Source of the DNA: an uncultured Gammaproteobacteria bacterium
GTDB lineage: Bacteria; Pseudomonadota; Gammaproteobacteria; UBA9214
Assembly: GCA_963712695.1 (NCBI GenBank)
Contig: CAVQJD010000007.1
Location: forward strand, 3,221 to 67,220
Length of the DNA stretch: 64,000 nt
Direction of reading: 5' to 3'
The notes beneath the pieces were generated by a model, which worked only from the letters and a program-made list of their open reading frames with translations, ran no database searches and was not told where the DNA came from. Below, piece after piece: positions 21,500 to 64,000 of this stretch. Made by a program: the position numbers and the translations under genes. Within the stretch, counting starts at the first letter, position 1; every line of letters starts with the position of its first letter.

Positions 21500-23482
21500 A
21501 TGACACACACAATTAGGAATCGTCTGGTCGCGGCAGCCATTGGACTCTGCCTGGGTCCCGCGGCCCATGCAGTCTGTCCGGTGGACGGTGCGACACCCTT
21601 CACCGCGGGTCCCGTCAACCCCAATAACGGTTTCGCCGAATACGTACAGGATTCCACTGGGCTGGCGCTGGAACTGTGTTCCGTGAGCACCATCGACCCC
21701 GTCACGGGGCTGCCCGGTAACCCGCCCAACTGTTTCTTCGACCCGCCACAGGCCGGCAATCCGTTCTCGGAGCAGATCGGCTTCGGGGCCGAGGGCTTCT
21801 GGTGGCTGGCGCAGGCCGACGACACTGCATTTCCAGCGGGACTCTCTGCGGTGCTGGTCATGGGCGCAGAGGCGGCTTTCCTGACCGAAACCCCCGCAGA
21901 TGGCGACCAGTTTCCTTTCACCCGGCTGCGCATCCGCCTCGACGTCCCGGTGCCAGGCTTTTACCAGGTGACCCACCCGTACGGTCAACAGGTATTCGAG
22001 GTCGTCGCCGTGGGCCCCGGACAGGAAGTGCGCGAGAGCTTTGACATCGAATTCGCGCCGGACGCCGTGAACCAGGGGCGGGTCGGACCCTGGCTGAGCT
22101 GGGATCCGGCCGTGCCACCGTTGGCGCCGACCGGCTTCATCGGTGACGGGCTAACCTCCCATGCCATCGTCGGCAGCCCCTGCCCAGACCCAGATAACAC
22201 AAATGAATTCAGCAACTTCCTGCGCATCGAGGCCTTTTCGGACGCAGCACTCCAAAATCCGCTGCCCATCCCAAACAACGGCGGCAGCAACACCGTGCAG
22301 ACCGATCTGTTCACGGTACAGGGCCAGCTCTTCGATGGGGTCCTGGCAACCCCCATGGTCGCGGACCGGACCTCCTACTCACGCGATGGCGCCACGACTG
22401 CACAGGTGGATGTGTTCACCAGCGGCGCCACCACGGCGAGCGTGACCTTCAGCGGCAATCCCAATGTACCGGCCGGGGCCCTGCCTCTGTCCGGCGACGG
22501 CAGCGGTTTGTTCTACAGCAGCGAGTTGCTGGCTCCGAACGGCAACACGGTGCCGGCGACGGTAACGGTGGCTGCGACGGATATAACTGCTCCGACTGAC
22601 CCGACCACCCTGATCCGGCCGCTGACCGATGTGGTGATCATCGCCCGCGCCGAGTACGACCTGGCGACCCAGACCCTCAGCGTCGAGGCAACATCCAGTG
22701 ACACCCTGGTACCGCAGACCCTGACCGTGGGCGAACTGGGTCTGCCAGTACCCGTCTCGGAGGTGCTGACAGTACCGCCGGGCCGGGTGACGGTGACTTC
22801 CACGGCGGGCGGCAGCGACACCGAAGCGGTGCTGGTCGTGGACAGCACGGACAGCGACGGCGACGGGATACCGGATACGCATGACAACTGTCCGATCAAT
22901 GCCAACACCGACCAGGCGGACCTCGACCTTGACGGCATCGGCGATGCCTGCGACCCGGACATCGACGGTGACACCGTGGACAACGGTCTGGACAACTGCC
23001 CGGTCAATGCCAACGCCGACCAGGCGGACCTCGACCTTGACGGCATCGGCGATGCCTGCGACCCGGACATCGACGGTGACACCATAGACAACGGTCTGGA
23101 CAACTGCCCGGTCAATGCCAACTCCGACCAGGCGGACCTCGACCTTGACGGCATCGGCGATGCCTGCGACCCGGACATCGACGGTGACAACGTGGACAAC
23201 GCTGCCGACAACTGCACACTAGTTGCCAACATCGACCAGCGTGACAGCAACGGGGACAATTTCGGTAATGTCTGTGACGCGGACTTCAACAACGACTGCG
23301 TGGTCGATGCATTCGATATTCCGGCGTTCAGAACGGCCTTTGGCTCGGCTGGACCGGATGAGGACCTGAATGGTGACAACATCGTGGATGCATTCGATAT
23401 CCCGCTGTTCAGAAATGCATTTGGACAGCCTCCGGGCCCGTCCTTTGTCGGCGCCTGCGTGGGGGTGCCGCCGCTGCCCTAG
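21500..23482 (+). CDS. Secreted family-A paralog, long form with four TSP3 repeats plus a double dockerin-like module.
   Basis: A GGAGG RBS and a signal peptide precede the family-A core. The C-terminal 200 aa are three near-identical 36-aa TSP3 repeats, then DNCTLVANIDQRDSNGDNFGNVCDADFNNDCVVDAFDIPAFRTAFG...DLNGDNIVDAFDIPLFRNAFGQPPGPSF. Confidence 0.7.
   Translation: MTHTIRNRLVAAAIGLCLGPAAHAVCPVDGATPFTAGPVNPNNGFAEYVQDSTGLALELCSVSTIDPVTGLPGNPPNCFFDPPQAGNPFSEQIGFGAEGFWWLAQADDTAFPAGLSAVLVMGAEAAFLTETPADGDQFPFTRLRIRLDVPVPGFYQVTHPYGQQVFEVVAVGPGQEVRESFDIEFAPDAVNQGRVGPWLSWDPAVPPLAPTGFIGDGLTSHAIVGSPCPDPDNTNEFSNFLRIEAFSDAALQNPLPIPNNGGSNTVQTDLFTVQGQLFDGVLATPMVADRTSYSRDGATTAQVDVFTSGATTASVTFSGNPNVPAGALPLSGDGSGLFYSSELLAPNGNTVPATVTVAATDITAPTDPTTLIRPLTDVVIIARAEYDLATQTLSVEATSSDTLVPQTLTVGELGLPVPVSEVLTVPPGRVTVTSTAGGSDTEAVLVVDSTDSDGDGIPDTHDNCPINANTDQADLDLDGIGDACDPDIDGDTVDNGLDNCPVNANADQADLDLDGIGDACDPDIDGDTIDNGLDNCPVNANSDQADLDLDGIGDACDPDIDGDNVDNAADNCTLVANIDQRDSNGDNFGNVCDADFNNDCVVDAFDIPAFRTAFGSAGPDEDLNGDNIVDAFDIPLFRNAFGQPPGPSFVGACVGVPPLP
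22883..23206. repeat. Tandem DNA repeat of 3 x 108 bp, ~95% identical, that encodes the TSP3 repeats of gene 21500..23482.
   Basis: The unit is gacaactgcccggtcaatgccaac...gacctcgaccttgacggcatcggcgatgcctgcgacccggacatcgacggtgac. Copies start at 22883, 22991 and 23099. It is in-frame and coding (DNCPVNANxDQADLDLDGIGDACDPDIDGD). Confidence 0.8.
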
Positions 23483-30680: not shown

Positions 30681-32616
30681 TCATTTTACAGGGCGCGGGG
30701 CTGATCGCGCAGTGGCGGACTTGCGGCGTGCGACGACTGTCATGCCCACCAGGCCGCCGAGGAACAGCCAGACACTTGCGGGCAGCGGCACAGGTGCCGC
30801 TGTAAAGAATAATTGCAGGTCCCATTCAGGGGTGAGCAGCACCTCGAAGTCCAGCCCCAGCCCCGGGTTCAGGTCCGGAAAACTGAAGAAAATATTGTCA
30901 AAGCCGCTCGCATGCTGTGCGAACAGGAAGTCGACATGCTCACCGATGCCGGGCTGGTAGCCATTCAGGCTGAACATGATCTGACTGTTCGGACCGAAGT
31001 CGATGTTGCCCAGGATATTAACGCTGTCGAAGTCGAACAGACCCAGCTCGAAGCTCACGGAGCCGTTAAAGTCGACGTTGCCACCAAAGGTCAGCGTTCC
31101 GAAAATATCGCTCGCATCGCTGGCTGCGCTGTCTCCCGGATTGACACTCGCCGGGGCATCGATCGTTACCGGTTGGGCAGTGGAGGTGATCACGCCTGTG
31201 CCCGTCAGGCTGCCGCCGCTGAGCGTGACCGCCGCCTGGGTGAGACTGCCATCGACCCGCGTGCTGCCTGCACCCTGTGTAAAACTGCCACTGCCGGTGA
31301 CGGCGCCAGTCACGGTCACTTCGAATGCACCGCTGTTAACCAGGCTGCCGGCATTGTTCAGGCTGCCGGCATTGACCAGCACGGCACCCGGGTTATTGGT
31401 CAGCGTGGCGGCGAGGCTGTTCCTCAGCGCGGCACCCGGAGCGCTGATCAGGACCGCGCCGGACTGATTGGTCAGAGTGACATAATTGTTCAGGTCCCGG
31501 TTGTTGACCAGGGAACCTGCATTAGCCAGGGAACCGTAATTGATCAGTGCGCCGTGATTGGTTACCGCGCCCGTGTTGGTCACGGTATCCAGATTCGCCA
31601 GGCTGGCGCCGGCGCTATTGGTGAATGTTCCTGTGTTATCGAAGTGACCGTAATTATTCAGACGCACGCCATTGGTCAGGCTGCCGCCTGACTGGTTGTG
31701 GAGGGTCCCGCCGTTGTACATGCTGTGCGTGATCAGCACGCCGGCATTGGCGAGTGTTCCATAATTGGTCAGGTAACCGCTGCTGGTGAGGCTGCCGCCG
31801 GACTGGTTGGCCAGGGTAGCGCCATCCTCGTTAACCAGCGTGTCACTGCTGGTCAATACGCCACTGTTAGACAGGTTACCGTAGTTGTACAGGCGATAAC
31901 TGTTGGACAGGGTGCCTGCGAACTGATTGATCAGGGTGGCGCCGGCCTCGTTGAAAAAATCGCCGCCGTTATTCAATGCACCCGTGTTGCTGAGGCTGCC
32001 GTAATTAGCTCAGATAGTTGCTGTTCGACAGCGTTGCACCGGACTGGTTGGACAGGTGGCGCCGTACGCGTTAACCAGCTTGACATTGTTAGTCAGCAAA
32101 CCCGCGTTGATCAGTGTGCCGGCATTGGCAAACAGGTAGTTGTTCGTGGTGCTGCCGCCGGTGCCGTTGGTCAGCATGCCTGCCGCCAGGTTATACAATG
32201 CTCCGGTATTTTCCAGCATGCCGTAGTTGCTGAAGGCTCCGCTGTTATTCGTAGTGCCACCGGACTGGTTGTTCAGTGACGCGCCAGCCAGGTTGCCGAG
32301 GTTGCCGGCGTTGTTCAGCAGGCCGGCGTTGTCGAGACTGCCAGTGTTCGCGAGGTCGCCAGTGGTCTGGATGTCGAGCTGACCACTGGCAGTGATCAGG
32401 CACGAAACATTATTGGTATCCAGTGTGCCAAGACTCACCTGACCGGTGATAGGACAATCGAGCTGTGCCTGGACGATCGGACTGACCGAGTACCCCGGCG
32501 CCGAGCGCCAGCGTCAGCCTGATAGCCCGGTCGAGGTGACGAAGCCGAAACACCGGCTGGCAGTGCCGTTTATGGTATTGCTTGTCACTGCTATTGCTGA
32601 ACACGCTGAGATCCAA
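30681..32616 (-). CDS. Large secreted repeat protein of autotransporter-associated beta-strand-repeat type with a C-terminal PEP-CTERM (VPLPA) anchor. It is frameshifted near 32000-32040.
   Basis: Dozens of degenerate 20-aa repeats of the form N-x-G-x-L-x-N-x-G-x-L-x-N-x-x-x (for example NSGALTNYGTLANAGVL). The C-terminus is VPLPASVWLFLGGLVGMTVVARRKSA. The N-terminal pieces are ORFs 32010-32438 and 32410-32616, with signal-like LTLALGAGVLGQS. Confidence 0.5.
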
Positions 32617-32639
32617 CCTGAAACGTCTTGTTATAGTTA

Positions 32640-33762
32640 TCGAGTGGCCTGAACGGTAACCACCCTGCTGTCCGGAGCTTCCGGGTCGGAAGGACAGAGG
32701 ACCTTTATTTATGGTTTATTAATACCCTGAACAAATATTGCATACCCCTCCACTTGACATCAAGACTATTTTTCAGTAATCGATGACGCCCCGCGTCGCC
32801 CGGTGCAGGGTCAAGTCACCTGCAGCGCGGCCTGTTAGCGGGTGGCTGACAGGCGGCGAACGCAACTGCTGTTTTGCCCTGTCCGGCGTAATGGACGGCG
32901 CTGTGACTGATCAGTACCCTCCACTCGCAAGTGCAGCGCCAGTGTGCTTCGTAAAATGTAAATAGCAAAAAGATTATCTATAAACCGCTATTTAATTAAT
33001 TCAGTATCAGGCACCGGCTGATAAGTCGGAAATTCTTACATGCTTAAATTCTGACTTGAATTGTTAGCTACTGATTTTTATGTATTTAACTGAAAATGTC
33101 GTTCGACCTGTCGGTTGAAATGTCACAATTGTTTACAAATCAATTTGCCCGCGCTTCCGTAGAAAATACCATCTCAACTGCAAGAAGCTGATCTAACGAT
33201 AAAAAATATTTCTGGCCTAATATTTGCCTTGATTTAACCAATAATAGCTGTCTCCGAATGGTGACGGTCGAACCTGATTGACTGGACAGATGCAAACTGA
33301 ACAAATAGTTTCGTATTGCTATTCACTGCGTGCGCACAGATTTACTATTTTCAAAATAAATAACAATGGCTTTCATGCGAAATACCGGAACAGGACTGAC
33401 AAAGCTGCCCGTTTTCATGATCAGAACGGGCACACGGGTGTGTCACAAATGACACATCTGTCTGCGATAAACTGCCACATCTGTCAGAATTGTCAGGATT
33501 GACTGTCGGGATGTGGCAACAGGCAACAGAATTTTGACATTAATCGATTTATAACCACTTGTTAACTATGGACTTACTGCGTGACCTAACTAATGACACA
33601 AAATCGGCACTGAAATTGCAGCACGGGTTATATGCGCTACCAGCTGTAAGTTTGTCATAAGCCGGAACGAAACGATGAAAATGAACTAACGATTTATGGT
33701 TGTTTTTTACTGAACTGAAACTTCCAAACGACAACCTCATGTACAGGGGAGAGGAGATTACG
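32640..33762. promoter_or_regulatory. AT-rich non-coding region of ~1.1 kb upstream of the third MCO gene. It holds clustered TGTCA/TGACA motifs and repeated CACATCTGTC elements.
   Basis: No ORF of at least 60 aa fits the local codon bias. GC is far below the flanks. Between 33430 and 33530 it reads gtgtgTCACAAATGACAcatctgtctgcg...ccacatctgtcagaattgtcaggattgactgtcgg. This includes the perfect inverted repeat TGTCA-N4-TGACA and two direct CACATCTGTC copies. Confidence 0.35.
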
Positions 33763-36698
33763 ATGTCAAGAAAAATCAAGAGAGAAGAGTCGCCAGGTGC
33801 AACACCGGCCGGATCGACTGTCACCTTATCAACACACAGGCTCGCGACACCTTTACAGATTGCTGCCGGAATTCTGTTTACATTGACGAGCGCCAGTGCG
33901 TTTGCCGTGGATACAGACGGCGATGGCGTAGACAACAACCTGGATAACTGCATCACCGTTGCGAACGCCGACCAGCGCGATACCAACGGCAATCAGATCG
34001 GCAACGTTTGCGATGCGGACTTCAACGGTGACGGGATAGTTGATGCATTCGACATTCCATTGTTTCGAACGGCCTTTGGTCAAAGCACGTTCCCGAATGA
34101 GGACATGAATGGCGACGGGATCGTCGACGCATTTGATATTCCGCTGTTCAGGGCAGCCTTTGGAAATCCACCGGGGCCGTCCTGTGCCGGTCTGTTCTAC
34201 GGCTGCGTGGCACCGCTCGACCCGCTCGCGATCCCCAAATACGTGTTGCCGCTGGTCATCCCGCCGGCAATGAACCCGGTCGGCGGACCCGGAGGCGCCC
34301 CTGATAACTACGAGATCGCCGTCAAGCAATTCCAGCAGCAGATTCTGCCGGGTGGACACTGGAACGCGGTATCGGCGAAATGCTGCGCGATCCGACAGCT
34401 CTGCGACCTTCCCCGCCACCACCGTGTGGAGCTATGGTCCGGCCGCGGATCCGCTGCCTGACTCCTCGGGCATACCGGGCGGTGCTGTCGGTCTGGCCCC
34501 GGCCCCGAACTCCCAGTACAACTACCCGGCCTATACCATCGAAACCACTAACGGCGGACGGGTACCGGTTGGCAACTATCAACCTAACCCCATCAGCATC
34601 ACCTGGATCAACGGCCTCAAGGAAAACTTCGGCGCGGGACCGAATTTCCTGCCGCACCTGCTGCCGATCGATCAGACCCTGCACTGGGCCAATCCGAAGG
34701 CAGACTGCATCGCCGGCTCGCCGCGCACCGACTGCATGGGTCCTAATCCCGACTATTACACGGGACCGGTCCCGATTGTGGTACACGTCCATGGCGGCCA
34801 CAACAACCCCCAGTCTGACGGCTACACGGAGGCCTGGTACCTGCCCGACCCGACCGGGAGCAACTTCAACTGCACCAATAACCCGGCCGTGGCGGCCAAT
34901 CCGCAGAACCCCAACACCTACGTGTGCGGTGGCAGCCTGATCAACCAGCTCGGCGTCGTCACCAACCCGGCCCCGAATGCGGCAGGCTTTGCCAACTTCA
35001 CCTACGACAATGATCAGCCCTCGACCACTATCTGGTATCACGATCATGCCCTGGGCATGACGCGCAGCAACGTGTACGCGGGCCCGGCCGGCTTCTTCCT
35101 GATCCGGCAGCCGAGTGGCGGTGAGGACGGTCTGGTGGCCGGCGTACTGCCTGGACCGGCCCCGGTCAGAGGCCAGGACGTGCTGTCGCTGAACATTCCG
35201 GGCAATCCGGTCAGAAGCAGCATCCGCGAGATACCGATCGCGGTTCAGGACCGTTCCTTCAATGCGGACGGCTCCCTGTTCTATCCGGCGGACCGGGCCT
35301 TCTTCGAAGGTCTGGGTGACGGCTTTGGTAATATCGAAGGCCAGTACAACGGTAACGCGGCGGCAGGACTGAACGTTGACTTCATCCCCAGCCCGACCTC
35401 CGACATGCCACCGATCTGGAACCCGGAGGCCTTCTTCAACACCATGGTGGTCAATGGTTCGACCTGGCCCGAACTGCAGGTGGCACCGGCGCAATACCGC
35501 TTCCGTCTGCTGAATGGCTGTAACTCCCGCTTCATTAACCTGGCGCTGATTGTCACGGATCCGGTCACGGGTGCGCAGACCACGGTCAACCGCACGGTGT
35601 GGGACGACACCACGGTTCCGCCCACCGCCTCGACGGTACCGGTCAATGAGCTCAGCTTCTTCCAGATCGGTACTGAACAGAGCATCCTGCCACAGGTGGT
35701 CAAGGTGGAAACCGGTGCCGCAACCCAACTGCCGGGTGATGGCACCATTCCGGCTCCTGTGGCTGCACCCGCTCCCCAGCAGGCCCTGCTGATGGGCAAC
35801 GCCGAACGTCCCGACGTGATCGTGGACTTCCGCGGTCTGCCCGACGGTACCGTGGTACGCGTGATCAATACCGGTCCCGACGAGCCGTTTGGCGGTTTCG
35901 ACCCCGCCAGCGTCCCGGCCGATCCGGCTACCACCGGACAGGTGATGCAGTTTGTGGTCAACTCGGCGCTGCTGGGCTCCTCGCCCACCGACGAGCTCCG
36001 CGGCACCGGACGGCACTCTGCAGAACCCGCTTACCCGCGCCACACCGCCGGAGTCTCTGGTGCTGGGCCCGGCTGACAATCCGCTGCCCAACACCCAGAT
36101 CCTGCGCCGACTCGCCCTGCTCGAGGAAGAGTCCGCTCTGGTGTGTGTGACGATCGACGGCGTAACCGGTGAAATCACCCAGGTACCCGGGGATATTCCT
36201 CCCTGTGTGACGCCGGAGGCCGAAGCTTTCGCACCGCTGGCGGCGGTACTGGGCACAGTGAATCAGGGCGGCGTACCGACCGTGCAGCTGTGGTCTGATC
36301 CGATCTCCACCAACCCGGCGCTGGGTGCCACGGAAGCCTGGCAACTCCAGAACTTCTCGGCTGATGCCCATCCCGTCCACCTGCACCTGGTCAAGTTCAA
36401 TGTGCTCGGACGTGAGGCACTGGGTGGCGGACCCTCGGTCGGCGGCGATCCGTTAAATGGGGGTATCAACGCGTGGGAGAACGGCTGGAAAGACGTCGTG
36501 ATTTCCTATCCGGGTGAGGCCACCACAGTCGCCGCTACCTTCGATATCCCGGGCCTTTACGTCTGGCACTGCCATATCGTCGAGCACGAGGACAACGAGA
36601 TGATGGTGCCCTTCTGTGTGGGTAACACGAACTGCGGTGGTCTTCCGCTCCCGGCAGCGGCCACGCAAGCCGCGTTCACCACCGGGCTCACTCCATAA
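33763..36698 (+). pseudogene. CotA/bilirubin-oxidase-type multicopper oxidase carrying the TSP3 plus double dockerin-like module at its N-terminus. Two apparent frameshifts.
   Basis: A GGAGAGGAG RBS and ATG 33763 start the gene, with signal LQIAAGILFTLTSASAFA. Next come DNCITVANADQRDTNGNQIGNVCDADFNGDGIVDAFDIPLFRTAFG...DMNGDGIVDAFDIPLFRAAFGNPPGPSC. The MCO body follows: IPKYVLPLVIPPAMNP, VVHVHGGHNN, TIWYHDHALGMTRSNVYAGPAGFF, HPVHLHLVKFNV and LYVWHCHIVEHEDNEMM. Frame shifts occur near 34400 and 36000. Confidence 0.65.
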
Positions 36699-40108: not shown

Positions 40109-43100
40109 GTGCCGATTCGACTGATACGCTGGTCCATTGAAAACCGCCTGCTGGTCATCCTGGCCACCCTGGTGCTCACCGGCTGGGGATGGCTGTCGGT
40201 GCTGCAGACACCGCTCGATGCCATTCCGGACCTGTCCGATGTGCAGGTCATCATCCGCACCAGCTACCCGGGCCAGTCCCCGCAGGTCATCGAGGACCAG
40301 GTCACCTACCCGATCACCACCACCATGCTTTCGGTACCGGGGACACGCGTGGTGCGCGGGTATTCGTTCTTTGGCGACTCCTATGTCTATGTCATTTTCG
40401 ATGATGACACCGATCTTTACTGGGCGCGCGCGCGGGTGCTCGAGTACCTCGACCAGGCGGAGGACAGCCTGCCGCCGGGCGTGCGGCCCAAGCTGGGGCC
40501 AGACGCCACCGGTGTCGGCTGGATCTACAGCTATGCCCTGGTGGATCAGGCGCGGAAACCACGATCTGGCGCAGCTACGCAGCATGCAGGACTGGTTCCT
40601 GAAATTCGAACTCCAGGCCGTGCCGGGCGTGGCCGAGGTGGCGACGGTTGGTGGCATGGTGCGCCAGTACCAGGTGGTGGTGAATCCCGAAAAACTCAGG
40701 GCCTACGGCATTCCCCTGACCCGCGTGGCCGAAGCCATTCGCAGGGCCAATCGGGAAACGGGTGGCTCCGTGAGTCGAAATGGCGGAATCGGAATACATG
40801 GTGCGCACCCGGGGCTATATTCAGTCGCTCGAGGATATCGAACACATACCGCTCGAGCAGACCGACAAGGGTATCCCGGTGCTGTTACGGGACATCGCGC
40901 ATATACAGGTCGGTCCGGAAATGCGCCGGGTGGTGGCCGACCTGGATGGCGAAGGGGAAGTTACCGGCGGCATCGTGGTCATGCGCCATGGCGAGAATGC
41001 CCTGCAGACCATCGCCGCGGTCAAGGAAAAACTGCGGGAACTCCAGAGCGGCCTGCCGGAAGGCGTCGAGATCGTCACGACCTACGATCGCTCGGAACTG
41101 ATCCTGAGAGCGGTGGACAACCTCACTGAAAAGCTCGTCGAGGAATTCATCGTGGTCGCGCTGGTGTGCCTGGTGTTCCTGTTCCACCTGCGCTCCGCCT
41201 TTGTTGCCGTCGTCACCCTGCCACTGGGCATCCTGATCTCGTTCATCATCATGAAACAGGCGGGGATCAATGCCAATATCATGTCCCTCGGCGGTATCGC
41301 CATTGCGATCGGCGCCATGGTCGATGCTGCGATCGTCATGATCGAGAACGCCCACAAACACCTGGAAAAAGCCGGCCCGGACCTGACCGGCAAACAGCGC
41401 TGGGAGACCATCACCCGGGCCGCACAGGAGGTCGGACCGGCCCTGTTTCTATTCACTGCTCATCATCACCCTGAGTTTCGTTCCCGTGTTCACGCTGGAG
41501 GCACAGGAGGGCCGGCTGTTTGCGCCGCTCGCGTTCACCAAGACATTTGCCATGGCCGCATCGGCCGGGCTCGCGGTTACGCTGGTGCCGGTGCTGATGG
41601 GTTATTTCATTCGCGGACGCATTCCCGGAGAGTCCGTCAATCCGCTCAGCCAGTTGCTGATCTGGCTGTACCGGCCTGCACTGAAGCGGGTGCTGGACGC
41701 GCCCGGAAATGACCGTGCTGCTGTCGATTGTCGTGGTCCTGAGCCTGCTGATTCCGCTGTACGGCATCAGCGGTTTCCTGGCGCCGCTCAAGTGGCCCCT
41801 GCAACTGGTACAGCTGGCAGAACCGTCATTCGCGGCCGGTGCCATCACCGCAATCGAGGACAGTCAGGAACGACTTGCCGTGGGCTGGCAGGCATGTTCC
41901 GCGACATTCCCTGGCTGGCGAGCCTCGGACAGGGACTGGGCTCCGAATTCATGCCGGAACTGTTCGAGGGCGACCTCATGTACATGCCCACCACGCTGCC
42001 CGGCATCTCCATCGGCAAGGCGCGCGAACTGTTGCAGCAGACCGACCGGCTGATCAGCCAGACACCGGAGGTCAAGCGGGTGTTCGGCAAGATCGGCCGG
42101 GCCGATACAGCCACCGATCCCGGCTCCGCTCACCATGATCGAAACACTGATTCAGCTCAAGCCGCGGGATGCAATGGCGACCCGGCATGACGGTAGAAAA
42201 ACTGATGGCGGAACTCGATGACAGAATCAGCTTCCCGGCACTGACCGATGCCTGGGTCATGCCGATCAAGACACGTATCGATATGCTGGCAACGGGTATC
42301 AAGACGCCCGTCGGGGTGAAAATCTCCGGGCCTGACGTCTACGAAATCGAGCGCATCGGCAAACAGCTCGAGAAAATCCTGATGCAGGTGCCGGGCACCC
42401 GGTCGGCCTATTCCGAGCGCGTCGCCGGCGGACGCTACATCGAAATTATCCCGCGGCGGCTGGAGGCGGCAAGACTGGGGCTCAATGTCGATGATATCAA
42501 TGACATCGTCAGCGCGGCAGTGGGCGGCATCAATGTCACGCAAACGGTAGAGGGACGCGAACGCTACACCGTGAACCTGCGCTTTCCGAGGGAACAGCGC
42601 GACGACGTGAAAAAACTCCAGCAACTGCCCCTGGTCACGACGAGCGGCGCCCAGGTGCCCCTGTCGCAGGTCGCCGAGGTGAAGGTGGTGGATGGACCAC
42701 CGATGCTGAGAAGCGAGAATGCACGCCTCAATGGCTGGGTGTTCGTGGATATCCGCGATGTCGATCTCGGCAGTTATGTCAACCGCGCCCGCGATACTGT
42801 GCTCGAGCAGATGGACTTGCCGCCGGGCTATTCCATTGCCTGGTCAGGACAATATGAGTACATGCTGCGGGCACAACAGAAACTGCGCCAGGTGGTCCCC
42901 CTGACCCTGATCATCATCTTCGTGCTGCTCTACCTGGCACTGCGCTCTGCCGGCGAGGCCACGCTGGTCATGCTGTCTTTGCCCTTCGCGCTGGTGGGCG
43001 GTTTCTGGTTCCTGCTGTTTCTCGACTATAACCTGTCGGTCGCGGTAGCTGTCGGGTTTATCGCCCTGGCCGGTGTAGCGGCGGAATTCGGCGTGGTGAT

Positions 43101-43462
43101 GCTGGTCTATCTCGATAATGCACTCGACACGCACCGTCGCCAGGGAGGCACAGCTCAGCGACAGTGCACTGCGCGAGGCCATCATGGAAGGTGCCGTGCT
43201 CAGGGTGCGCCCCAAGGCCATGACCGTGGCGGTTATCATCGCCGGCCTGCTGCCGATCATGCTGAGTGAGGGAACCGGGTCGGAAGTGATGCAGCGCATT
43301 GCGGCGCCCATGATCGGCGGCATGGTCACCGCACCGCTGCTGTCCATGTTCGTCATTCCGGCGGTGTATTACCTGCAGCAACGACGCAGCACTGAACAAG
43401 TCCTGAACACTAGCCCGCTTCAATCCCCTGCCTGCTTCTTGCCGGTAATCAGCCCCGTGTAA
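40109..43462 (+). pseudogene. cusA: CusA/CzcA-family heavy-metal RND efflux pump. The frame is broken about 6 times, by sequence error or pseudogenisation.
   Basis: The N-terminus [49 protein letters not shown] is typical of CusA. Homology continues through ORFs 40137, 40780, 41166/41486, 42169 and 43118. The C-terminus is [27 protein letters not shown]. Confidence 0.7.
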
Positions 43463-51100: not shown

Positions 51101-54238
<3,138 letters not shown>

Positions 54239-54265
54239 GGACCGCTGCCTCAGTGCTGGTGTATT

Positions 54266-55503
54266 TCAAAACCCGACTTGGCGAGCTCCGACTGCAGAAA
54301 GAAGGCGCCCTGGGTAACCACCCGTACATCCGGCACGAGGCCCTCGATCACGGTGTGGGTGTCTGACGAGCGCAGCACCCTGACTTCCCTGGACTCGAAC
54401 ACATTGTCCTCGTGCTTCGACAAACACCTGCCAGTCACCATCCGGACTGCGCAGTACCGCATGTGCCGGAATGGCCAATACTGCTTCGTTCACACTCCCT
54501 TCAATGCGCACGTCAACAAACAACCCGGGATGCAGCCGGTCATCCGGATTCGGGATCTCGATACGCACACCCAGCGTCCGGGTATCTTCGTCCAGGGCAT
54601 GATGCACCTGGATCACACGCCCCTCTACCTGATGCTCGCCAATCACTATGGTCGCCCGCGCATTCACCTGTATCCGGGCGGCCTCATCCGGGGTCAGCCG
54701 TGCTTCGACCCAGAGCACGGATTCATCACTGATCTCGAACAGTACGCGCCCGGGCTCGACCAGTTCGCCCACGATGAAATCATCACGAATCACCGTGCCA
54801 TCCTGTGGCGCCAGTAACTGGAATCGCCCATCGGCGAGCTCCGCCTTACCACTTGCCAGGAGTTGCCTGATTTCGTCCTCCGTCATGCCATAGGCACTCA
54901 CCCGTGCACGCGCCTGTTCGCGTGCGATACGTGCCTCGGTATAACGCTGCTCGGAGACGACATCCCGACCGAGTTTGCTGACCCGCTGCCATTCGCGCTC
55001 GGCAACCAGCAACTCACCCTGGGCCTGCGCCATCTCGACACTGGAGAGCATGACCAGTGCCTGTCCTTTGTGAACACTGTCACCGAGTCGCGCCTGTCTG
55101 TCAAGCACCTGGGCTGCAATTCTCGGCGCCACCCTGGTCGTGGCATAGGCATTCAGTTGAATTTCGCCCGGCGCGCGGAGTTCGTTCACGAATGTCGCGT
55201 GGCTGCAGGCGCTCACCACCACGCCGGCCATTTCCTGTTGTTCCGGCGTCAGGCGGACACCATCCTCGCCGTGTCCTGCGCTGTTCAGTCCGTGCTCACC
55301 TGCATGTTTATCTTCGGCTCATGCTCATCTGCGTGTTCATGTCCATGTTCATCTTGATGCTCAAGTTCACCTGCATGCGCAGGCTCATCTACATGCTCAT
55401 GCCCAGGTGCATGCTTTACCTGTTCAGCTTGCTCGGCGTGCAGCGAGACAGGCATGGCAGTGCCAAGCAGGCCCGCGAAAAACCAGATACCTATTCTGTT
55501 CAT
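54266..55503 (-). CDS. czcB: CzcB/CusB-family RND membrane-fusion protein with a His-rich N-terminal metal-binding segment. One apparent frameshift near 55260.
   Basis: ATG at 55503 follows an AGGAGA RBS. Signal MNRIGIWFFAGLLGTAMPVSLHA is followed by HAPGHEHVDEPAHAGELEHQDEHGHEHADEHE. The MFP body lies in ORF 54266-55231. Its start overlaps the czcC stop. Confidence 0.65.
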
Positions 55504-56743
55504 TGTGTGTCTCCTGTAAGGTTCAGCCACTGGTCGGCCTGACCGGAAGCAGCCAGCCAGTCCGCCCACGCCCGCCACATCCGGCCACGTTGTTCGGTGG
55601 CGCCGACTTCGGTATCCAGCGCCTGTTTCAGTTGCACCAGATAATCCGTGGTATTGAGTTCACCGGCCTGCCATAACCGATCGAGCAGATCAGTGCGTTG
55701 ACTGAGACGGGACGCACCGGATGCCTCCCAGGTTTTCCAGGCAAGGCTTGCATTCCGATAGACCTGCGCCGCTGCGATCAGATCGGCATGCGCCTGTTGC
55801 ATGTGATTGGCTGCCTCACGTTCTGCCTGAATCAGGTCGGCATTGGCGACATCGACTTCCGCACTGAAGGTGTTGCGCACGAACAGCGGCACGGAAACGC
55901 TGAGCCCGGTCAGCGTCTCGGAATCCTCTTTCCCGACCCGGAAACCAATAGTCGGGTCCGGAGTTTGTTCACGGAGACTCAGCTGAACTGAAGCACGCCC
56001 GGCTGCAACCCGCGCCAGGGCAGCCTGCATCGAAGGCAGATCATCCAACAGGCGATCCACATCCACCTGTTGTGGATCAATGTCTGGAAGCAGTTCGTCA
56101 AATGCGGGCCAGCCGGATGCATCACTGCCGGTCAGCGCCGTCAGCACCTGCTGTGCCCGGATCAGCTGCTCGCTGGCATTTGCGCTCCTGAAGCCGGCAT
56201 CAGCAGTGGCCAGATGTGCCAGATCGAGTTCCACCTGACCGAGATCACCCGCCCGCCGGCGCTGTTCCGCAAGGTGCGCAAAACGCGTCATTAACGTGGT
56301 CTGTTTTTCACTGATACCGACAATGGCCCCGGCCGTGTGCCAGTCCGCAAGGGCCCGCAACAGATCAGTGGCCAGGCGCTGACGTTTTGAGTGTAGTTCG
56401 GCGTTTGCAGCGCCAGCTCAAAATCAGCAACGGCCGTGCGTGCACCGCGCTTGTCAGACCAGTCGATGGTCTGGCTGAGTCCCCCAGTGGTCGTATCGAT
56501 TTCGCTGTTTTCGTAATCGAATTCCAGCTCGGGATTGAACAGGGGTTGATCGGCGGCACGCAGCCGCCCGCCGGCGGCATCGACTGCTGCCTGTGCGGCC
56601 TGTATCTCCGGATTTTGCGAAAGCACTGCGTTGATCCAGCCTGATAGTGCCGGACTGGCAACGGTTGACGACTCGGCCACTGTGGCGGGTGCAATCACCA
56701 GACAGGCGGCCGCGACCACAGTAATAAGATATTGCTTGAACAT
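55500..56743 (-). CDS. czcC: Outer-membrane efflux factor (CzcC/CusC/TolC family). One apparent frameshift near 56330.
   Basis: Signal MFKQYLITVVAAACLVIAPATVA in ORF 56291-56743. The TolC-like coiled-coil body lies in ORF 55500-56360. Together with the two genes above it forms a czcCBA-like operon on the minus strand. Confidence 0.65.
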
Positions 56744-57461: not shown

Positions 57462-58118
57462 ATGCGTCACGGAAATATCCGTAGCCTGCAGTTAAGTTAT
57501 TCCATGCATTTTCGCGTTACTCCAGGGCTTTTTAATTCAGTGAAATCCGGGCATGGGAGTCTTTGCATGAAGCGTAGTCCTGTCTGCTGCATCGTCACTA
57601 TCGGCTTGTTCTGGGCTGGACAAACGCCAGCCATACCACTTGACCAGCAGGACACTGCAGCTGGTACGCACAGCATGGATTGCACCCTTCCCGACTGCAG
57701 TAGCGCTGGTGTTTTATTCTTCGATCCGGACATAAGAAGCCCGGCCAGCAGTGGTCACAACAAGACATTCGCCAGGCTGCTGGCGCATGAGAATCATGTT
57801 GGCACAATCACGCCAAGCGCCAGCACAACTCCAGAAGATGGCGTATCCAGAACGCCAGTCAAGGCCAGGATTGAGCCGGTTGCTGTCAAGGGATGGAGCA
57901 GTGTAATGACGATGGAGATCCAGGGTTACAAGTCCCGCGGCAGCGAGAAATCAACCATCAGCCTGGACTCTGCATTGTCAGGCAGTCTGATCAGGATGAT
58001 TCAATCCGATATCACCGGGCCTGCTTTTGGCGTCTGGCTGGTGATGGATGATCCGGCTGTTGCATTTCCCGAGGTTACTTCGATGTCGCAGCTGCTCGGC
58101 AGTTCCCGGCATGAGTGA
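57462..58118 (+). CDS. Hypothetical secreted protein with an uncertain start.
   Basis: ORF with an internal Met followed by a hydrophobic stretch (MKRSPVCCIVTIGLFWAG). No recognisable motif. GC is lower than the locus average. Confidence 0.3.
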   Translation: MRHGNIRSLQLSYSMHFRVTPGLFNSVKSGHGSLCMKRSPVCCIVTIGLFWAGQTPAIPLDQQDTAAGTHSMDCTLPDCSSAGVLFFDPDIRSPASSGHNKTFARLLAHENHVGTITPSASTTPEDGVSRTPVKARIEPVAVKGWSSVMTMEIQGYKSRGSEKSTISLDSALSGSLIRMIQSDITGPAFGVWLVMDDPAVAFPEVTSMSQLLGSSRHE

Positions 58119-58723
58119 GTGTTCAGGAAAACACAATGTTTAAAGGAATCGCCAAACCCGCATTCATGCTGTTGATCATCATCTGCCGGCAGACACCTGT
58201 CTGCGCTGCAATCGTGTATGACGAATTCATCAGTGGAGATTTGCCTGACTCGAATGCAGTGACACCGATTCTTGCTGTTGGCGCCGGAAGTAACGAAATC
58301 ACAGGTGAGCTTGGGATAGATCCGGACACGTCGGATAGTTTTTTCATCGATCTGCGCAACGGTTTTCGGCTTGACTCGATTATTGTTACAAAGTTTCCGG
58401 TATCAGCGAATGGGTACCAGATTGGATTTAATCTTCTCTACGCAAACAGCTTGTACTATCTCAGCATTGACCAGGCTCAATCAGGCGTTGACATCCTGCC
58501 ATTACTGAACCCGCTTTGGGGGCCTGGTTTTTCCTTGCCGTTTCAAAATGACAGTATTGAAATAATCCTGATCAGCACGTTAAGCCGTAACGCGTATGGG
58601 CTTGATTTCGTGGTCTCACAGACACCGCTACCCTCGGCACTGATTTTGTTGTTATCAGGAATGTTTACCCTGGTCTTGGCAGGAAACCGGAAAAACAAGT
58701 CACACAAACGAATGCATACCTGA
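58115..58723 (+). CDS. PEP-CTERM-type sorting-domain protein.
   Basis: Signal peptide. The C-terminus is TPLPSALILLLSGMFTLVLAGNRKNKSHKR, that is a (V/T)PLP motif, a transmembrane helix and a basic tail. Confidence 0.5.
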   Translation: MSVQENTMFKGIAKPAFMLLIIICRQTPVCAAIVYDEFISGDLPDSNAVTPILAVGAGSNEITGELGIDPDTSDSFFIDLRNGFRLDSIIVTKFPVSANGYQIGFNLLYANSLYYLSIDQAQSGVDILPLLNPLWGPGFSLPFQNDSIEIILISTLSRNAYGLDFVVSQTPLPSALILLLSGMFTLVLAGNRKNKSHKRMHT

Positions 58724-59693: not shown

Positions 59694-59861
59694 GGGTTGA
59701 TCAGGTCGTTATCTCGCACCCGCACATTGTTACACATCAGCAAAGCAAATTCTCCGGGGCTCTTCCCTGAATTGAGTGGGTAGATTACCGTTGCAGGGTA
59801 GAATTCATTCGGCCAACAACCTTGCCATCAGCAGGAATTTCCTGCCCTCCGGCACAGCAAA

Positions 59862-59891
59862 AGACCCGCACCAGGCGGGTCTTTTGGTTTG
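59862..59891 (-). terminator. Bidirectional rho-independent terminator downstream of the mamK-like gene.
   Basis: AGACCCGC-ACCAG-GCGGGTCT is flanked by TTTGGTTTG on the plus strand and TTTTG on the minus strand. Confidence 0.5.
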
Positions 59892-60073: not shown

Positions 60074-61093
60074 TTATAATTTCTCCAGAAATTCTTCAGG
60101 CATATCCACCGCCAGCTCCAGGGCACCATCGGCGCCTGCATACAGCGGGTCATTGATGCAGGTAAACGTGCAGGGACCGAACGGCTTGGTGGCTTCGGTG
60201 AGATAGGCATCCAGACCCGTGAGCTGGCTGCCGCCACCGGCCACAACGATGTTCTTGCGCACACTTTCCTGGAATTCAGGATCAAAACTGGCAATGAGGT
60301 CGATGGCAGTTTCGATAATGGCTGGCATAGGACTTTCGCAGGCCTTGCGCATTTCCACGGTGATATCGAATTCCGTGAATTTGCCGTCCACCGGGGCCTC
60401 GATCTTGACCCGACGTTTCGGCTCCCCGACGAAGCCGTGTTTTTCCTTGAACTTGCGCACCGTGTTCAGGGAGAAATCCGCCTCGGGGTGTTTCTCGGTC
60501 AGTAGTTTCAGCAGCTGTTCGTCCACGTAGTCGCCAGCCATGAGAATGCTGCGCTGGTCTTCATCCGTGGGAACCGTGCCATGCATGATGCAAAAATCCA
60601 CGGTACCGGCACCGATGTCGATGATCATGGTGTTGTCCAGCGTGCCCAGGCCATAGGCAACCGAGAACGGTTCGGAGACCACCATCAGCTTCTTGGCATG
60701 CTGGGCCACGGAATTCTTGATGGCCATCTTGTTCACCTTGAGCGCCTCTGCCGGTACGCCGACGGCAACACAGACCTCGTCGTCCGGGCCGACACCGGCC
60801 AGTTCCATCAGGTGGTCGATCAACTCCTGCACCGCAGCCTCGTCCCGCTCGGTACCTTCCGTGATGATGCCGTTGCGCAGTGGCCGGGAGAGATTCAGCG
60901 CAAGCCGGTGCTCCAGCGCCTCGCTGCCAAACAACACCCGCTTGCCGAGCATTTTCTTGGCGACGAAATCCTTCGGCCAGCCGACATAGCTTTCCACCCA
61001 TTTGCGGTTGCCGTTGCTGGCAGCCACCACGGACCTGGATGTGCCCAGGTCAATACCAATGTGCAGCAGGTTATCCTTCTTTGTTGGCGACAT
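60074..61093 (-). CDS. mamK: MamK-family actin-like ATPase, a homologue of the magnetosome-associated cytoskeletal filament protein.
   Basis: Motif-by-motif agreement with MamK along the whole protein: IGIDLGTS, VGWPKD, DDEVCVAVGVPA, LMVVSEPFSVAYGLGTLDNTMIIDIGAGTVDFC, HGTVPTDEDQ, AGDYVDEQL, KHPEA, PMPAIIETAI, FQESVRKNIVVAGGGSQLTGLDAYL, KPFG and FTCINDPLYAGADGALELA. This match is from memory of MamK sequences, not from a search. The gene is distinct from MreB, ParM and FtsA. Confidence 0.75.
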   Translation of the reverse strand: MSPTKKDNLLHIGIDLGTSRSVVAASNGNRKWVESYVGWPKDFVAKKMLGKRVLFGSEALEHRLALNLSRPLRNGIITEGTERDEAAVQELIDHLMELAGVGPDDEVCVAVGVPAEALKVNKMAIKNSVAQHAKKLMVVSEPFSVAYGLGTLDNTMIIDIGAGTVDFCIMHGTVPTDEDQRSILMAGDYVDEQLLKLLTEKHPEADFSLNTVRKFKEKHGFVGEPKRRVKIEAPVDGKFTEFDITVEMRKACESPMPAIIETAIDLIASFDPEFQESVRKNIVVAGGGSQLTGLDAYLTEATKPFGPCTFTCINDPLYAGADGALELAVDMPEEFLEKL

Positions 61094-62246
61094 GTTGCAT
61101 TTTCCCTCTGTCTATTGTTCTTCGGTCAGTGCGTTGTTCAAGGTATTCAATGATACCCGTCTCCAGGTAGCTGGCGACATTATCCCGGTATTCCGGCTTG
61201 CTCAGGCGGGTTTCCTCCGCCTTGTTGCTGATGCAGGAAACCTCCACCAGCACGCTGGGCACTTCAACTCCCAACAGTACCATAAACGGCCCGGTCTTTG
61301 ATCTGGCATCCATGAGATCGCGGTTGTGGCGCTTCAGGCTGCTGTAGAGACGCCGGTGAATGGAGCCGGCAAGCTGCTTCGATTCCTCGGTCTTCAGGGT
61401 GTCGCCTATTCTGGCAATGACCTCGCGAAAATCGCCCATGAGATAGTCAGATTCACGGTTTTCCTGCTCGGCCAGATCGAGTGAACGCTGATCCGTGTGC
61501 GGCCCGAAGTAATAGGTCTCGACATAGTTAACGTGTCTGACCTCATCTGGCAGGGAATTGATATGAATGGAGATGAACAGGTCCGCCCGGTGCTCTTTGG
61601 CGAAGGCCACCCGCTCCTTCAAATAGACCTTCCTGTCATCCTCGCGGGTGAGCAGGACACGATACTTTCCGGAGCTGGTGAGCTTGTCCCTGAGTCGTTT
61701 TGCGATGTCCAGCACGACGTCCTTTTCCTTCAGACCCTGGTGGCCCGTGGCACCCGGATCGATGCCACCATGTCCGGGGTCGATGACAATCGTCTGAATC
61801 CTGAGATTAAACAAATCTGCCATCGGCATACCGAGTCCGGCCAGCATGTCAGTATAGCGACCGGTCCGGTTCGTGGTATCCCTGACAACCTGCAACGGCT
61901 CAAGGCCGGCCGGCCAATCGTCATGAATGACGGGGGCTTCATCCGGGCTGGTCAGCAGGGACAGGCTTGTGACAGGCAATGGTGCGAACTGTCTGTCCAG
62001 CACCTGCATCGCGACCGGTCCGGCATCGTCAACCGTGACCAGTCGAAAATTGATACCGAACAGGGCGATGAAACCCAGTACTAGCGCCAGGATCAGCCGG
62101 TAGCGGTACCCCAACCTCAGCCCGGGGGGCTGTGACCCAACAGCGAATCTTGATCGCCCCTTGCCACGATTGGAGCGGGGGATGCCCACGTTATCCTCAT
62201 AGACACCCTGTAAAACCGCCCTTTTTATGTCTGATTGAGACATCAT
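61071..62246 (-). CDS. N-acetylmuramoyl-L-alanine amidase (Amidase_3 / AmiC family) with an N-terminal membrane anchor. It is co-operonic with the mamK-like gene.
   Basis: Transmembrane helix LILALVLGFIALFGINF. Amidase_3 motifs: IVIDPGHGGIDPGA, LFISIHINS and GPFMVLLGVEVPSVLVEVSCISN. Its 3' end overlaps the mamK-like start by 23 nt. Confidence 0.75.
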   Translation of the reverse strand: MMSQSDIKRAVLQGVYEDNVGIPRSNRGKGRSRFAVGSQPPGLRLGYRYRLILALVLGFIALFGINFRLVTVDDAGPVAMQVLDRQFAPLPVTSLSLLTSPDEAPVIHDDWPAGLEPLQVVRDTTNRTGRYTDMLAGLGMPMADLFNLRIQTIVIDPGHGGIDPGATGHQGLKEKDVVLDIAKRLRDKLTSSGKYRVLLTREDDRKVYLKERVAFAKEHRADLFISIHINSLPDEVRHVNYVETYYFGPHTDQRSLDLAEQENRESDYLMGDFREVIARIGDTLKTEESKQLAGSIHRRLYSSLKRHNRDLMDARSKTGPFMVLLGVEVPSVLVEVSCISNKAEETRLSKPEYRDNVASYLETGIIEYLEQRTDRRTIDRGKMQHVANKEG

Positions 62247-62484
62247 AAACCTAGCCGGTCATGATCCAGACGCATGCTTTGAATACCGGCAGTCGGAACA
62301 CTGCGAGCAAAATATTATTCCGGAGCAACAATCTATCGCACCTCAGGCGCAAGTTTATTACATCTTTCAATACAGTGTTACAGCCAGTGCGTCTGGCATA
62401 TCCCCTGCCAGACCTTTATACTCTTTGAAACGACTGGCCTGCCTGATATGGCCAATATAATATTTATATAAAACAATATAATAA

Positions 62485-63354
62485 ATGGCAAACCTGTTGA
62501 TTAACCTCAAACAATACTGGCGCAAGGCAGTGGCCAGTATAAACAAATCCTTCAGTGAGCAGGAAAATACCCGGCAACGCCAGGAAGCGCTCGAACGGGA
62601 GATGCTGTCTCTCGATACAGCGTATCAAACCCTGGTCGGGAAGCTGGAAGGCATGCGGGCTGAATCCGAGCGCGTCGGTTCGGAAGCATTCCGGAAAATC
62701 GCGACACTCGAGCAATCGCACCAACAAACCGAGTCCGCCAGAATCGAAGCAGCCGAAAAGCTCGCCCAACTAGAGCAACGATTGCTCGAGACAGCAAATG
62801 AGCGTCAGCTCGAACACCAGCAGGTCGCGGCACTCGAAACGGCACTGGCAGAATCGACACGCCAGCTGGAAACCAGAGCCAACCAGCTCAAGTTCCTCCA
62901 GGATTCTGCACGCGAGCAACTCCAGGCACTCAAGACCGCACTGGCCGAGACTGAAAGCCGCCTGGAAACCCGAGATAATGAAATCAGGCAACTGCAGGAT
63001 TCAGCGCATGAGCAGATCACTTCACTTGAAATCGCGCTGGCCGAAGCAGTCAGCCGCTTTGAAACCATAGAGGGCGAACTCAGGGAATTACAGGCAACGA
63101 AACAGGAACAGGCGCATCAAATTGACGCTTTCCTTGCATCCTCCAGCATCCAGCTGGCAGCGACCACTAACCAGATCATGGCGCTGGAAAAAAAGCTCGA
63201 TGTTGAACGTAAGCTCCAGCAGCACCAGGCCGAAGATACCCAGGCGCTGTTGCGCAAGCAGGAGAAGCGCTTGAGATGGGCGCTGGTGGTCGCAGTTTGC
63301 GCGCTTATCCTGGCGGCCGTGGAAGGCGCATTCTTCTTTGGGGGTACGCGCTAG
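62485..63354 (+). CDS. Coiled-coil protein with internal ~40-aa repeats and a C-terminal transmembrane anchor. It is divergent from the amidase/mamK-like operon.
   Basis: Heptad-rich sequence with three repeats of QLETR(A/D)N(Q/E)(L/I)(K/R)(F/Q)LQDSA(R/H)EQ(L/I)...L(K/E)(T/I)ALAE. It ends in WALVVAVCALILAAVEGAFFFGG. Confidence 0.5.
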   Translation: MANLLINLKQYWRKAVASINKSFSEQENTRQRQEALEREMLSLDTAYQTLVGKLEGMRAESERVGSEAFRKIATLEQSHQQTESARIEAAEKLAQLEQRLLETANERQLEHQQVAALETALAESTRQLETRANQLKFLQDSAREQLQALKTALAETESRLETRDNEIRQLQDSAHEQITSLEIALAEAVSRFETIEGELRELQATKQEQAHQIDAFLASSSIQLAATTNQIMALEKKLDVERKLQQHQAEDTQALLRKQEKRLRWALVVAVCALILAAVEGAFFFGGTR

Positions 63355-63738
63355 TTCCTTGCGGTCAGACACCTGCCGCTCCTCGACGCGCCGGAGCAGA
63401 AACAATCTTGATGTATGAAATGACCTCCATTGAGCGAAACAGGTATCGCGCTTGGCCTTAAGTCTTACTCACCGTATTTCCGTCAGTTCCGGTGCATTTA
63501 CTCAGATCAGGCTCGTTACCCAGGCGCTGTTCATGAGTAGCGTATGAATATTCACAGCTACGAGGGATCAACCGCTTCGATGACAAAAATGGTAATGGAT
63601 GACGGTTATTCTTTATTAATTATTTAAAATAATGCTTGTATGTTTATGATAAATATCATATATTACGCATGGTAACAATTTAGTCATTTTAATGTAACTT
63701 CTTATTATTTATAGATAATTTGTAGCTATAAATACAAC

Positions 63739-63773
63739 TTATCCACATATTTATCCACTGACTCTGTGGATAA
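63739..63773. promoter_or_regulatory. Cluster of three consensus DnaA boxes inside an AT-rich region (63560-63800), a candidate replication origin or DnaA-regulated site.
   Basis: TTATCCACA at 63739-63747, TTATCCACT at 63751-63759 and inverted TGTGGATAA at 63765-63773. They are flanked by more than 150 bp at under 30% GC (63600-63735). Confidence 0.5.
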
Positions 63774-64000
63774 CCCATCATTAAATTCCGGTCATTCAGA
63801 ACCTGTTTCCCAACAGGGTTCTTCAGGACTGCCAGGCTTTCGCTCCGGGTGAATGTTTTTTGTCATCCATTCCGGGCAATTCGTCTGTTTTTCGGGTGGC
63901 AATACCTGTTAGATAGCCCGGGCGATTTTGAGTTGAGGTCAGCGATCTAACGCGAGAGACTACCTGATGGAACACAAACAGAGCCTGGAAAGAATGACCA

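Follow-up and report, generated by a model that had tools for sequence, protein, structure and literature searches.

Near the end of a 64,000-nucleotide stretch of contig CAVQJD010000007.1 from an uncultured gammaproteobacterium (hereafter the window, meaning the whole stretch), a gene encoding a MamK-family actin-like protein is preceded on the same strand by a gene encoding a membrane-anchored N-acetylmuramoyl-L-alanine amidase. Judged from the sequences, it is reasonably likely that these two genes form a module in which a cytoskeletal polymer is functionally coupled to a cell-wall hydrolase. The pair probably represents an undescribed module for cytoskeleton-guided cell-wall remodelling. 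This proposal draws on the anatomy of the genes, the families of their products, the conservation of the pair, a motif in the N-terminal tail of the amidase, the active sites of both proteins, purifying selection, and the lack of magnetosome genes in the surroundings. A literature search by title and abstract retrieved no publication describing the combination of a MamK-family actin with an amidase, and no mention of the accession numbers of relatives carrying the pair.

Relatives of the actin were collected by a profile scan of one genome per GTDB species. The scan yielded 429 relatives, and we used the best 80 loci, which share 47-88% identity with the window actin. In 77 of the 79 informative loci (the 80th locus ends at a contig edge), the gene directly preceding the actin gene, in the same orientation, encodes an orthologous amidase. 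The two informative loci without an amidase were L067 and the planctomycete locus L083, of which the latter also falls outside the clade of amidase-linked actins. According to the record titles, the pair is carried by at least nine named lineages, comprising Gammaproteobacteria, Desulfobulbaceae and other deltaproteobacteria, Nitrospirota, Rhodothermales, Acidobacteriota (Thermoanaerobaculia, Holophagales and Aminicenantes), Gemmatimonadota, Rokubacteria, Schekmanbacteria and Binatia. An earlier note, made from the letters of the window alone, had suggested a stand-alone MamK-like module tied to peptidoglycan hydrolysis, and this wide distribution of the pair supports that suggestion.

All flanking open reading frames (ORFs) were clustered after a homology-weighted choice of ORFs. 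The actin family recurred at 81 loci and the amidase family at 74 loci, with four more amidases masked by spurious ORFs, while the next family recurred at only 7 loci. No third gene was conserved in these flanks. At most loci the two genes are joined by an overlap of 1-38 nucleotides (nt) or separated by a gap of 0-5 nt; the 23-nt overlap of the window, which had been noted earlier and is real, recurs identically in L001 and L005. Apparent amidase-actin fusion ORFs in L043, L047, L049 and L056 were identified as frame artefacts when their reading frames were checked. The distance matrices of the amidases and the actins were strongly correlated (Mantel r = 0.91; permutation maximum 0.14), implying that the pair diversified as a unit. 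Furthermore, the actins cluster mostly according to the host lineages given in the titles of their records. In comparison with three relatives, the ratio of nonsynonymous to synonymous substitution rates (dN/dS) was 0.09-0.11 for the actin and 0.19-0.33 for the amidase, indicative of purifying selection on both genes.

The sole Pfam domain in the amidase is Amidase_3 (158 bits, residues 153-366); no AMIN domain was detected by Pfam, and no Tat- or Sec-type export signal was found in the protein. The closest solved structures, by sequence as well as by fold, are Bartonella AmiB (3NE8), Escherichia coli AmiA (8C2O) and AmiC (4BIN). The enzyme had been described as AmiC-type, which holds for its catalytic domain, resembling those of AmiA, AmiB and AmiC. 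As a label for the whole protein it fails, given the missing AMIN domain and a score of 110 on the NCBIfam equivalog model for AmiC (cutoff 700). The scores for AmiA (129, cutoff 400) and AmiB (83, cutoff 532) likewise stayed below their cutoffs. The N-terminal transmembrane helix proposed for the amidase was recovered as a hydrophobic helix at approximately residues 47-66, and as a helix at residues 47-63 in the AlphaFold2 (AF2) model. This model is of moderate quality (predicted local distance difference test score, pLDDT, 58), with a pLDDT of ~72 in the transmembrane helix and disorder at residues 64-137.

We compared 67 full-length amidase orthologs for their motifs and active sites. They share a common architecture, in which the tail motif leads via a basic linker into a single transmembrane helix, followed by a variable linker that is probably disordered and then by the catalytic domain. 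The consensus of the tail is K/R-x-x-h-h-x-x-h-[Y/V]-x-[D/E]-N, with DIKRAVLQGVYEDNVG in the window protein. A regular expression for this motif ([KRQ]..[ILVMF][ILVMFA]..[ILVAFM][FYVIAL].[DENQ]N) matched 60 of the 67 orthologs, across lineages, versus 6 of 4138 control ORFs, and near-variants occur in at least four further orthologs. Motif and transmembrane helix are separated by a linker whose median values are 20 residues in length and +4 in net charge (+7 in the window amidase). Because this linker is basic, the positive-inside rule implies an N-in orientation, with the tail predicted to be cytoplasmic and the Amidase_3 domain periplasmic. The zinc ligands and the catalytic glutamate (H159, E174, H228 and E335) are invariant in all 67 orthologs. 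Residue N230 is invariant as well, giving the sequence H-x-N (residues 228-230, positions 61557-61565) versus H-A-D in AmiA, AmiB and AmiC; H-x-N is a signature of the subfamily of MamK-linked amidases.

The actin scored 406.9 bits on the NCBIfam model for MamK (NF040964), marginally above the whole-protein cutoff of 400, as compared to 195 bits on the BeeR model and 87 bits on the MreB model. In a sequence search of the PDB, residues 7-337 aligned without gaps to MamK of Magnetospirillum magneticum (5LJW; 300 bits), followed at a distance by BeeR (8R2N; 132 bits) and MreB (~55 bits), and no ParM structure was found at E <= 1e-5. The AF2 model of the actin (pLDDT 79) gave the same ranking in Foldseek, with MamK first (5LJW and 5LJV; TM-score 0.84-0.87, 43% identity), then BeeR and then MreB. 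Among Pfam models, Alp7A_like_C reached 16 bits, which is under its cutoff. The nucleotide-binding and catalytic positions D15, G17, T18, E141, D159 and G161-T164 are shared with MamK proteins encoded in magnetosome gene clusters (MGCs). The model scores, the structure search and the fold match thus agree with the earlier view that this protein resembles MamK and not MreB or ParM.

Membership of the MamK family does not place the protein among the magnetosome MamK proteins. We built a neighbour-joining (NJ) tree from 180 sequences, with E. coli MreB as the root. It placed the 85 amidase-linked actins, without exception, in a single clade that also contained three unlabelled cluster representatives and was disjoint from the clade of labelled magnetosome MamK. 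With a reduced set of taxa, a clade of MGC MamK without any amidase-linked sequence was recovered in 92 of 100 NJ bootstraps. The amidase-linked clade spans 364-424 bits on the MamK model, as compared to 451-549 bits for MGC-encoded MamK. Identity is 57% inside each class and 41% across the two classes. They have 41 invariant positions in common, among them the ATPase residues that correspond to E143 and D161 of MamK; six positions are class-specific (S21, W39, A45, V88, A144 and P234 in the amidase-linked actins versus T, Y, G, A, M and R in MGC MamK). With weak support for the monophyly of the amidase-linked actins, the NJ bootstraps would fit both a group that is sister to MGC MamK and a paraphyletic group in which MGC MamK is nested. 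Hence the family named in the earlier note stands, by a small margin over the MamK cutoff, but the protein lies outside the clade of magnetosome-encoded MamK.

Other MamK-family clades that we examined (P0124, P0130, the ANME-2 group and the planctomycete L083) have no amidase neighbour, so that the amidase link appears to be clade-specific. In one of these other clades the gene stands alone, with parAB and a gene for a bactofilin in the vicinity, and another clade occurs in Gemmatimonadota; neither has an amidase neighbour.

Two of the actin groups met in this survey have unusual surroundings of their own. A MamK-family clade without an amidase neighbour is present in ANME-2/Methanosarcinales archaea (L099, 5001-11077; cluster of P0137), where an ORF of at least 1940 residues without any Pfam family lies directly 3' of the MamK-family gene. 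Approximately 13 cluster representatives are proteins of 520-1232 residues with a C-terminal MamK-family domain (L089, 7944-11570, and neighbours). One of these long proteins is encoded beside another actin, together with four proteins of the Roadblock/LC7 type and a GTPase resembling Arf/Ras, again without an amidase. This set of long fusions is a different, uncharacterised actin system.

We propose the following mechanism for the pair. The actin would form a cytoplasmic polymer dependent on adenosine triphosphate (ATP). The bitopic amidase would expose an N-terminus of ~45 residues to the cytoplasm and place its Amidase_3 domain, with an intact active site, in the periplasm. The amphipathic tail motif (K-x-x-h-L-x-G-V-Y-E-D/E-N-h) would dock onto the filament, and the position or dynamics of the filament would then determine the sites at which stem peptides are removed from glycan strands, and perhaps also whether this cleavage takes place. 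In the gammaproteobacterial lineage of the window, the tail-anchored coiled-coil protein encoded next to the pair could act as an additional adaptor. We infer filament formation, binding of the tail to the filament, amidase activity, a physiological output and any role of the coiled-coil protein; candidate outputs would be daughter-cell separation, cell shape or local remodelling of the wall.

Several observations weigh against this mechanism. Conservation of an operon is linkage, not physical contact, and the motif in the tail could instead recognise the membrane or some partner encoded elsewhere. The helix predicted by AF2 at residues 3-20 of the amidase, which covers most of the motif, is of low confidence (pLDDT ~45-48). 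The amidase also aligns through the regulatory-helix segment of 3NE8 and 8C2O (with a pLDDT <50 at residues 265-281 of the AF2 model), and because its catalytic domain resembles the auto-inhibited type of AmiA, AmiB and AmiC, the enzyme may by analogy need a LytM-type activator. No LytM gene is encoded nearby or co-conserved in the flanks of the related loci. Exact monophyly of the amidase-linked actins was recovered in 32-43% of the NJ bootstraps, which is weak. Furthermore, the best 80 loci all come from metagenome-assembled genomes, and hence include no carrier with known cell biology.

An unlikely alternative is a filament that positions a different cargo, for example a protein complex or a non-magnetic organelle, with the amidase serving mainly as a peptidoglycan-bound anchor that ties the filament to the wall rather than as a regulated output. 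MamK-family proteins in magnetotactic bacteria are indeed cargo-positioning filaments, a bitopic layout with a periplasmic peptidoglycan-binding fold would suit an anchor, and the lineage-specific coiled-coil protein could be the adaptor for a cargo. However, the four catalytic residues are invariant in all 67 orthologs, which favours enzymatic activity over binding alone, and no gene for a candidate cargo is co-conserved in the flanks.

It seems quite improbable that the two genes are transcribed together for regulatory convenience only and have independent roles, for instance as a housekeeping amidase and an additional shape protein of the MreB-like kind. In that case the motif in the tail could have a binding partner other than the filament. 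Yet the adjacency of the two genes, mostly with overlapping frames, has been kept across the lineages listed above while all their flanks changed, the tail motif is confined to the MamK-linked subfamily of amidases, and the sister clades of the actin lack an amidase.

We give almost no credence to the possibility, raised in the earlier note, that the locus is the edge of a magnetosome cluster continuing past position 64000 and that the actin is a true magnetosome MamK, even though the protein exceeds the MamK cutoff and finds its best structural match in MamK. As a positive control we used locus L096 from a Mariprofundus metagenome-assembled genome, which encodes MamF, MamI, MamE (with magnetochrome), MamK, MamM, MamO, MamP and FeoB. 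In tblastn searches with the proteins of this cluster, no mam gene other than the actin was found in the 64-kb window, extending the earlier statement that none lies within 4 kb. Across the window and the 948 kb around 84 related loci, MamF, MamI, MamE, MamM, MamO and MamP had no counterpart, and the searches retrieved only MamK plus one match to a generic protease. The complete 2.6-Mb gammaproteobacterial genome CP070821.1 carries a relative with 85% actin identity and the same three genes, in which the 23-nt overlap is kept and the flanks are unrelated. In this genome and on long contigs, the module of the relatives is embedded among unrelated housekeeping genes. Beyond the coiled-coil gene the window itself continues with an AT-rich stretch containing DnaA boxes, and no further coding sequence. 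The scores and bootstraps of the MGC clade given above also set the amidase-linked actins apart. The locus is not the edge of a magnetosome cluster; its actin gene lies outside an MGC, and the protein does not group with the functional MamK of such clusters.

Equally remote is an origin as a ParM/Alp-like segregation actin or phage actin on a mobile element, where the amidase would be a hydrolase for lysis or transfer. In its favour, plasmids and phages are known to carry actin-like proteins as well as amidases, and the flanks of the module differ between genomes. Against it, 72,556 plasmid and 50,697 phage records contained no close homolog (only MreB-level matches, at 27-29% identity), ParM was missing from the PDB matches at E <= 1e-5, no integrase, ParR-like or phage family recurred in the flanks, PADLOC reported nothing of note, and the actins cluster mostly by host lineage.

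The gene transcribed divergently from the pair encodes a protein rich in E, Q, L, A and R without any Pfam family. The earlier description of a repeat-bearing coiled-coil protein with a C-terminal membrane anchor was borne out, in that a 32-residue internal repeat gave a self-score of 91 (shuffle mean 32, maximum 53) and a hydrophobic segment is present at approximately residues 261-286. The repeat is visible at the protein level only; Tandem Repeats Finder detected no repeat in the DNA of the gene. These features suggest a cytoplasmic coiled coil held at the membrane by its C-terminal anchor. Four species (among them L001, L005 and L092) have an ortholog in the corresponding divergent place, at 39-52% identity, and dN/dS in comparison with three relatives was 0.26-0.40, again indicating purifying selection. 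Only gammaproteobacterial relatives with an actin identity of 81% or more have the gene next to the pair; it is absent at loci with an actin of 78% or 68% identity and in all other lineages, and no positional analogue was found near the loci outside this close group. It thus belongs to the module in the closest gammaproteobacterial relatives, not in general, and from synteny among these close relatives only, it may act as an adaptor particular to this lineage. In magnetotactic bacteria, MamK has known coiled-coil partners (PMC12748827).

The coordinates of the features are listed in Table 1; the three ORFs reported earlier are all present at their positions. The actin start codon (ATG) is preceded at 10 nt by GAGGG. 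In the public record the amidase starts at the second methionine, which gives a protein of 390 residues. An Rfam scan of the window gave no match, and PADLOC, which searches for defence systems, returned negligible matches only.

Table 1. Features of the amidase-actin locus and its surroundings, with positions in the window.
Feature	Positions	Strand	Basis or remark
MamK-family actin-like ATPase, 339 aa	60074-61093	(-)	ORF call; clade of amidase-linked actins, outside that of magnetosome MamK
Bitopic N-acetylmuramoyl-L-alanine amidase, 391 aa	61071-62246	(-)	Pfam Amidase_3; upstream of the actin
Overlap of amidase and actin reading frames, 23 nt	61071-61093	(-)	Amidase stop codon inside the actin ORF
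Cytoplasmic N-terminal motif of the amidase, residues 6-21, DIKRAVLQGVYEDNVG	62184-62231	(-)	Regular expression across orthologs; proposed filament docking peptide
Transmembrane helix of the amidase, ~residues 47-66	62049-62108	(-)	Hydrophobicity and AF2 helix
Periplasmic Amidase_3 catalytic domain, residues 153-366	61149-61790	(-)	Pfam
Divergent intergenic region between amidase and coiled-coil genes	62247-62484	.	AT-rich
Weak promoter-like site in the intergenic region	62393-62422	(+)	Single site found; predicted
Tail-anchored coiled-coil protein, 289 aa	62485-63354	(+)	Divergent from the amidase-actin pair
32-aa repeats of the coiled-coil protein, residues 121-184	62845-63036	(+)	Protein self-comparison
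GC-rich 12-bp hairpin, possible operon terminator	59858-59886	.	~190 nt past the actin stop codon; consensus scan only

The other window genes that we scanned encode components of heavy-metal efflux, thrombospondin-repeat proteins, cytochrome-related proteins and a protein of the isoaspartyl peptidase/asparaginase family. An efflux gene of the RND/AcrB family at 40109-43269 is seemingly broken up into four or more ORFs that overlap and lie in different frames; the last piece, which was the only one tested, covers positions 632-964 of the ACR_tran profile. A second efflux locus at 52107-56743 also looks fragmented. These fragmented genes are either pseudogenes or products of indel errors in the assembly; the actin, amidase and coiled-coil genes, unlike them, are intact. 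Two large proteins with thrombospondin type 3 repeats are encoded at 44-2680 and 21500-23482, one of which also contains a di-haem cytochrome c peroxidase (MauG-like) domain. The GC content drops to 0.49 at 32001-34000, as compared to a background of ~0.60-0.66, and this segment may be a horizontally acquired island. At 58115-58723, an ORF of 202 residues without any Pfam family starts with a hydrophobic, signal-like segment, and its C-terminus (TPLPSALILLLSGMFTLVLAGNRKNK) resembles, by eye only, a PEP-CTERM sorting tail. Finally, the 64 kb contain just two perfect DnaA boxes (TTATCCACA), both of which come after an AT-rich stretch of ~150 nt within 63600-63790. They are accompanied by a third box with one mismatch, all three within 35 nt (63739-63773), and this cluster may be a replication origin or a DnaA-regulated promoter.

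The amidase-linked clade has consequences for the use of MamK as an annotation. Public records sometimes label its members 'MamK family actin-like protein', and the gene mamK serves as a marker for magnetotactic bacteria (bioRxiv 10.1101/682252). Many 'MamK family' annotations within this clade thus have no connection to magnetosomes. The pair offers a concrete partner for an uncharacterised bacterial actin. Moreover, the origin of MamK can now be addressed, with magnetosome MamK either sister to the amidase-linked group or nested in it. We can go further only tentatively, to a broader reading that is possible but doubtful. The amidase-linked actins would then be a widespread older or parallel branch of the family, with actin-guided peptidoglycan cleavage in many uncultured diderms as its native job, amounting to a new system of morphogenesis or cell separation. 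Magnetosome MamK would be a specialised offshoot of such a wall-associated cytoskeleton, and the amidase tail motif would represent a new class of actin-binding peptide, with its effect exerted across the inner membrane.

Among known systems, magnetosome MamK of M. magneticum AMB-1 (5LJW, 5LJV and 5JYG) has the same family and fold as the window actin, with 43% identity in a gapless alignment. Magnetosome MamK is encoded in an MGC with MamJ, MamY or Mca as its partner, whereas the window actin lies outside an MGC and is paired with an amidase. MamK relatives are also known from non-magnetotactic bacteria, namely BeeR of Verrucomicrobiota (8R2N; PMC11929497) and the 'big bacteria protein' Bbp of Ca. 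Electrothrix gigas, Thiomargarita and Beggiatoa (PMC10580974), so that a role outside magnetosomes has a precedent for MamK-like actins. The window actin is distinct from BeeR, which has a disordered N-terminal extension of 30-50 residues, as compared to only ~10 residues before the first strand in the window protein. With 28% identity and 195 bits versus a cutoff of 530, membership of the BeeR family is excluded. Bbp, compared here by description only, clusters with a hypothetical and a Kelch-like protein, and the paper on it mentions no amidase (PMC10580974). The module has no Kelch neighbour, and no named Bbp host is among the best 80 loci.

The amidase shares the zinc ligands and the catalytic glutamate of Amidase_3 with AmiA, AmiB and AmiC, which have the nearest catalytic domains. 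These enzymes have an export signal, an AMIN domain (in AmiB and AmiC) and the sequence H-A-D, in contrast to the predicted cytoplasmic tail, the transmembrane anchor and the H-x-N of the window amidase.

The closest parallel to the module as a whole is the bactofilin system of Hyphomonas neptunium and Rhodospirillum rubrum, in which the bitopic M23 endopeptidase LmdC binds the bactofilin BacA via its cytoplasmic tail, as verified by experiment (PMC10945521). As with the window pair, lmdC and bacA are adjacent in many species. Both modules combine a bitopic hydrolase, bearing a conserved N-terminal motif on the (here predicted) cytoplasmic side, with a polymer gene downstream in the operon. 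The parts themselves are unrelated, a nucleotide-independent bactofilin with an M23 peptidase on the one hand and an actin ATPase of the MreB_Mbl/MamK family with an Amidase_3 enzyme on the other, and the resemblance is an analogy, not a homology. The tail motif is a predicted helix in the window amidase and a beta-hairpin in LmdC; its binding to the polymer has been demonstrated for LmdC, whereas we infer it for the window amidase. If the proposal is true, the amidase-actin pair would be a second independent case, after bactofilin and LmdC, of a cytoplasmic polymer that steers a periplasmic hydrolase via a short tail. By this analogy the principle would be the known one, and the novelty would lie in the parts, with a MamK-family actin as the cytoskeletal element that guides an Amidase_3 enzyme in peptidoglycan hydrolysis.

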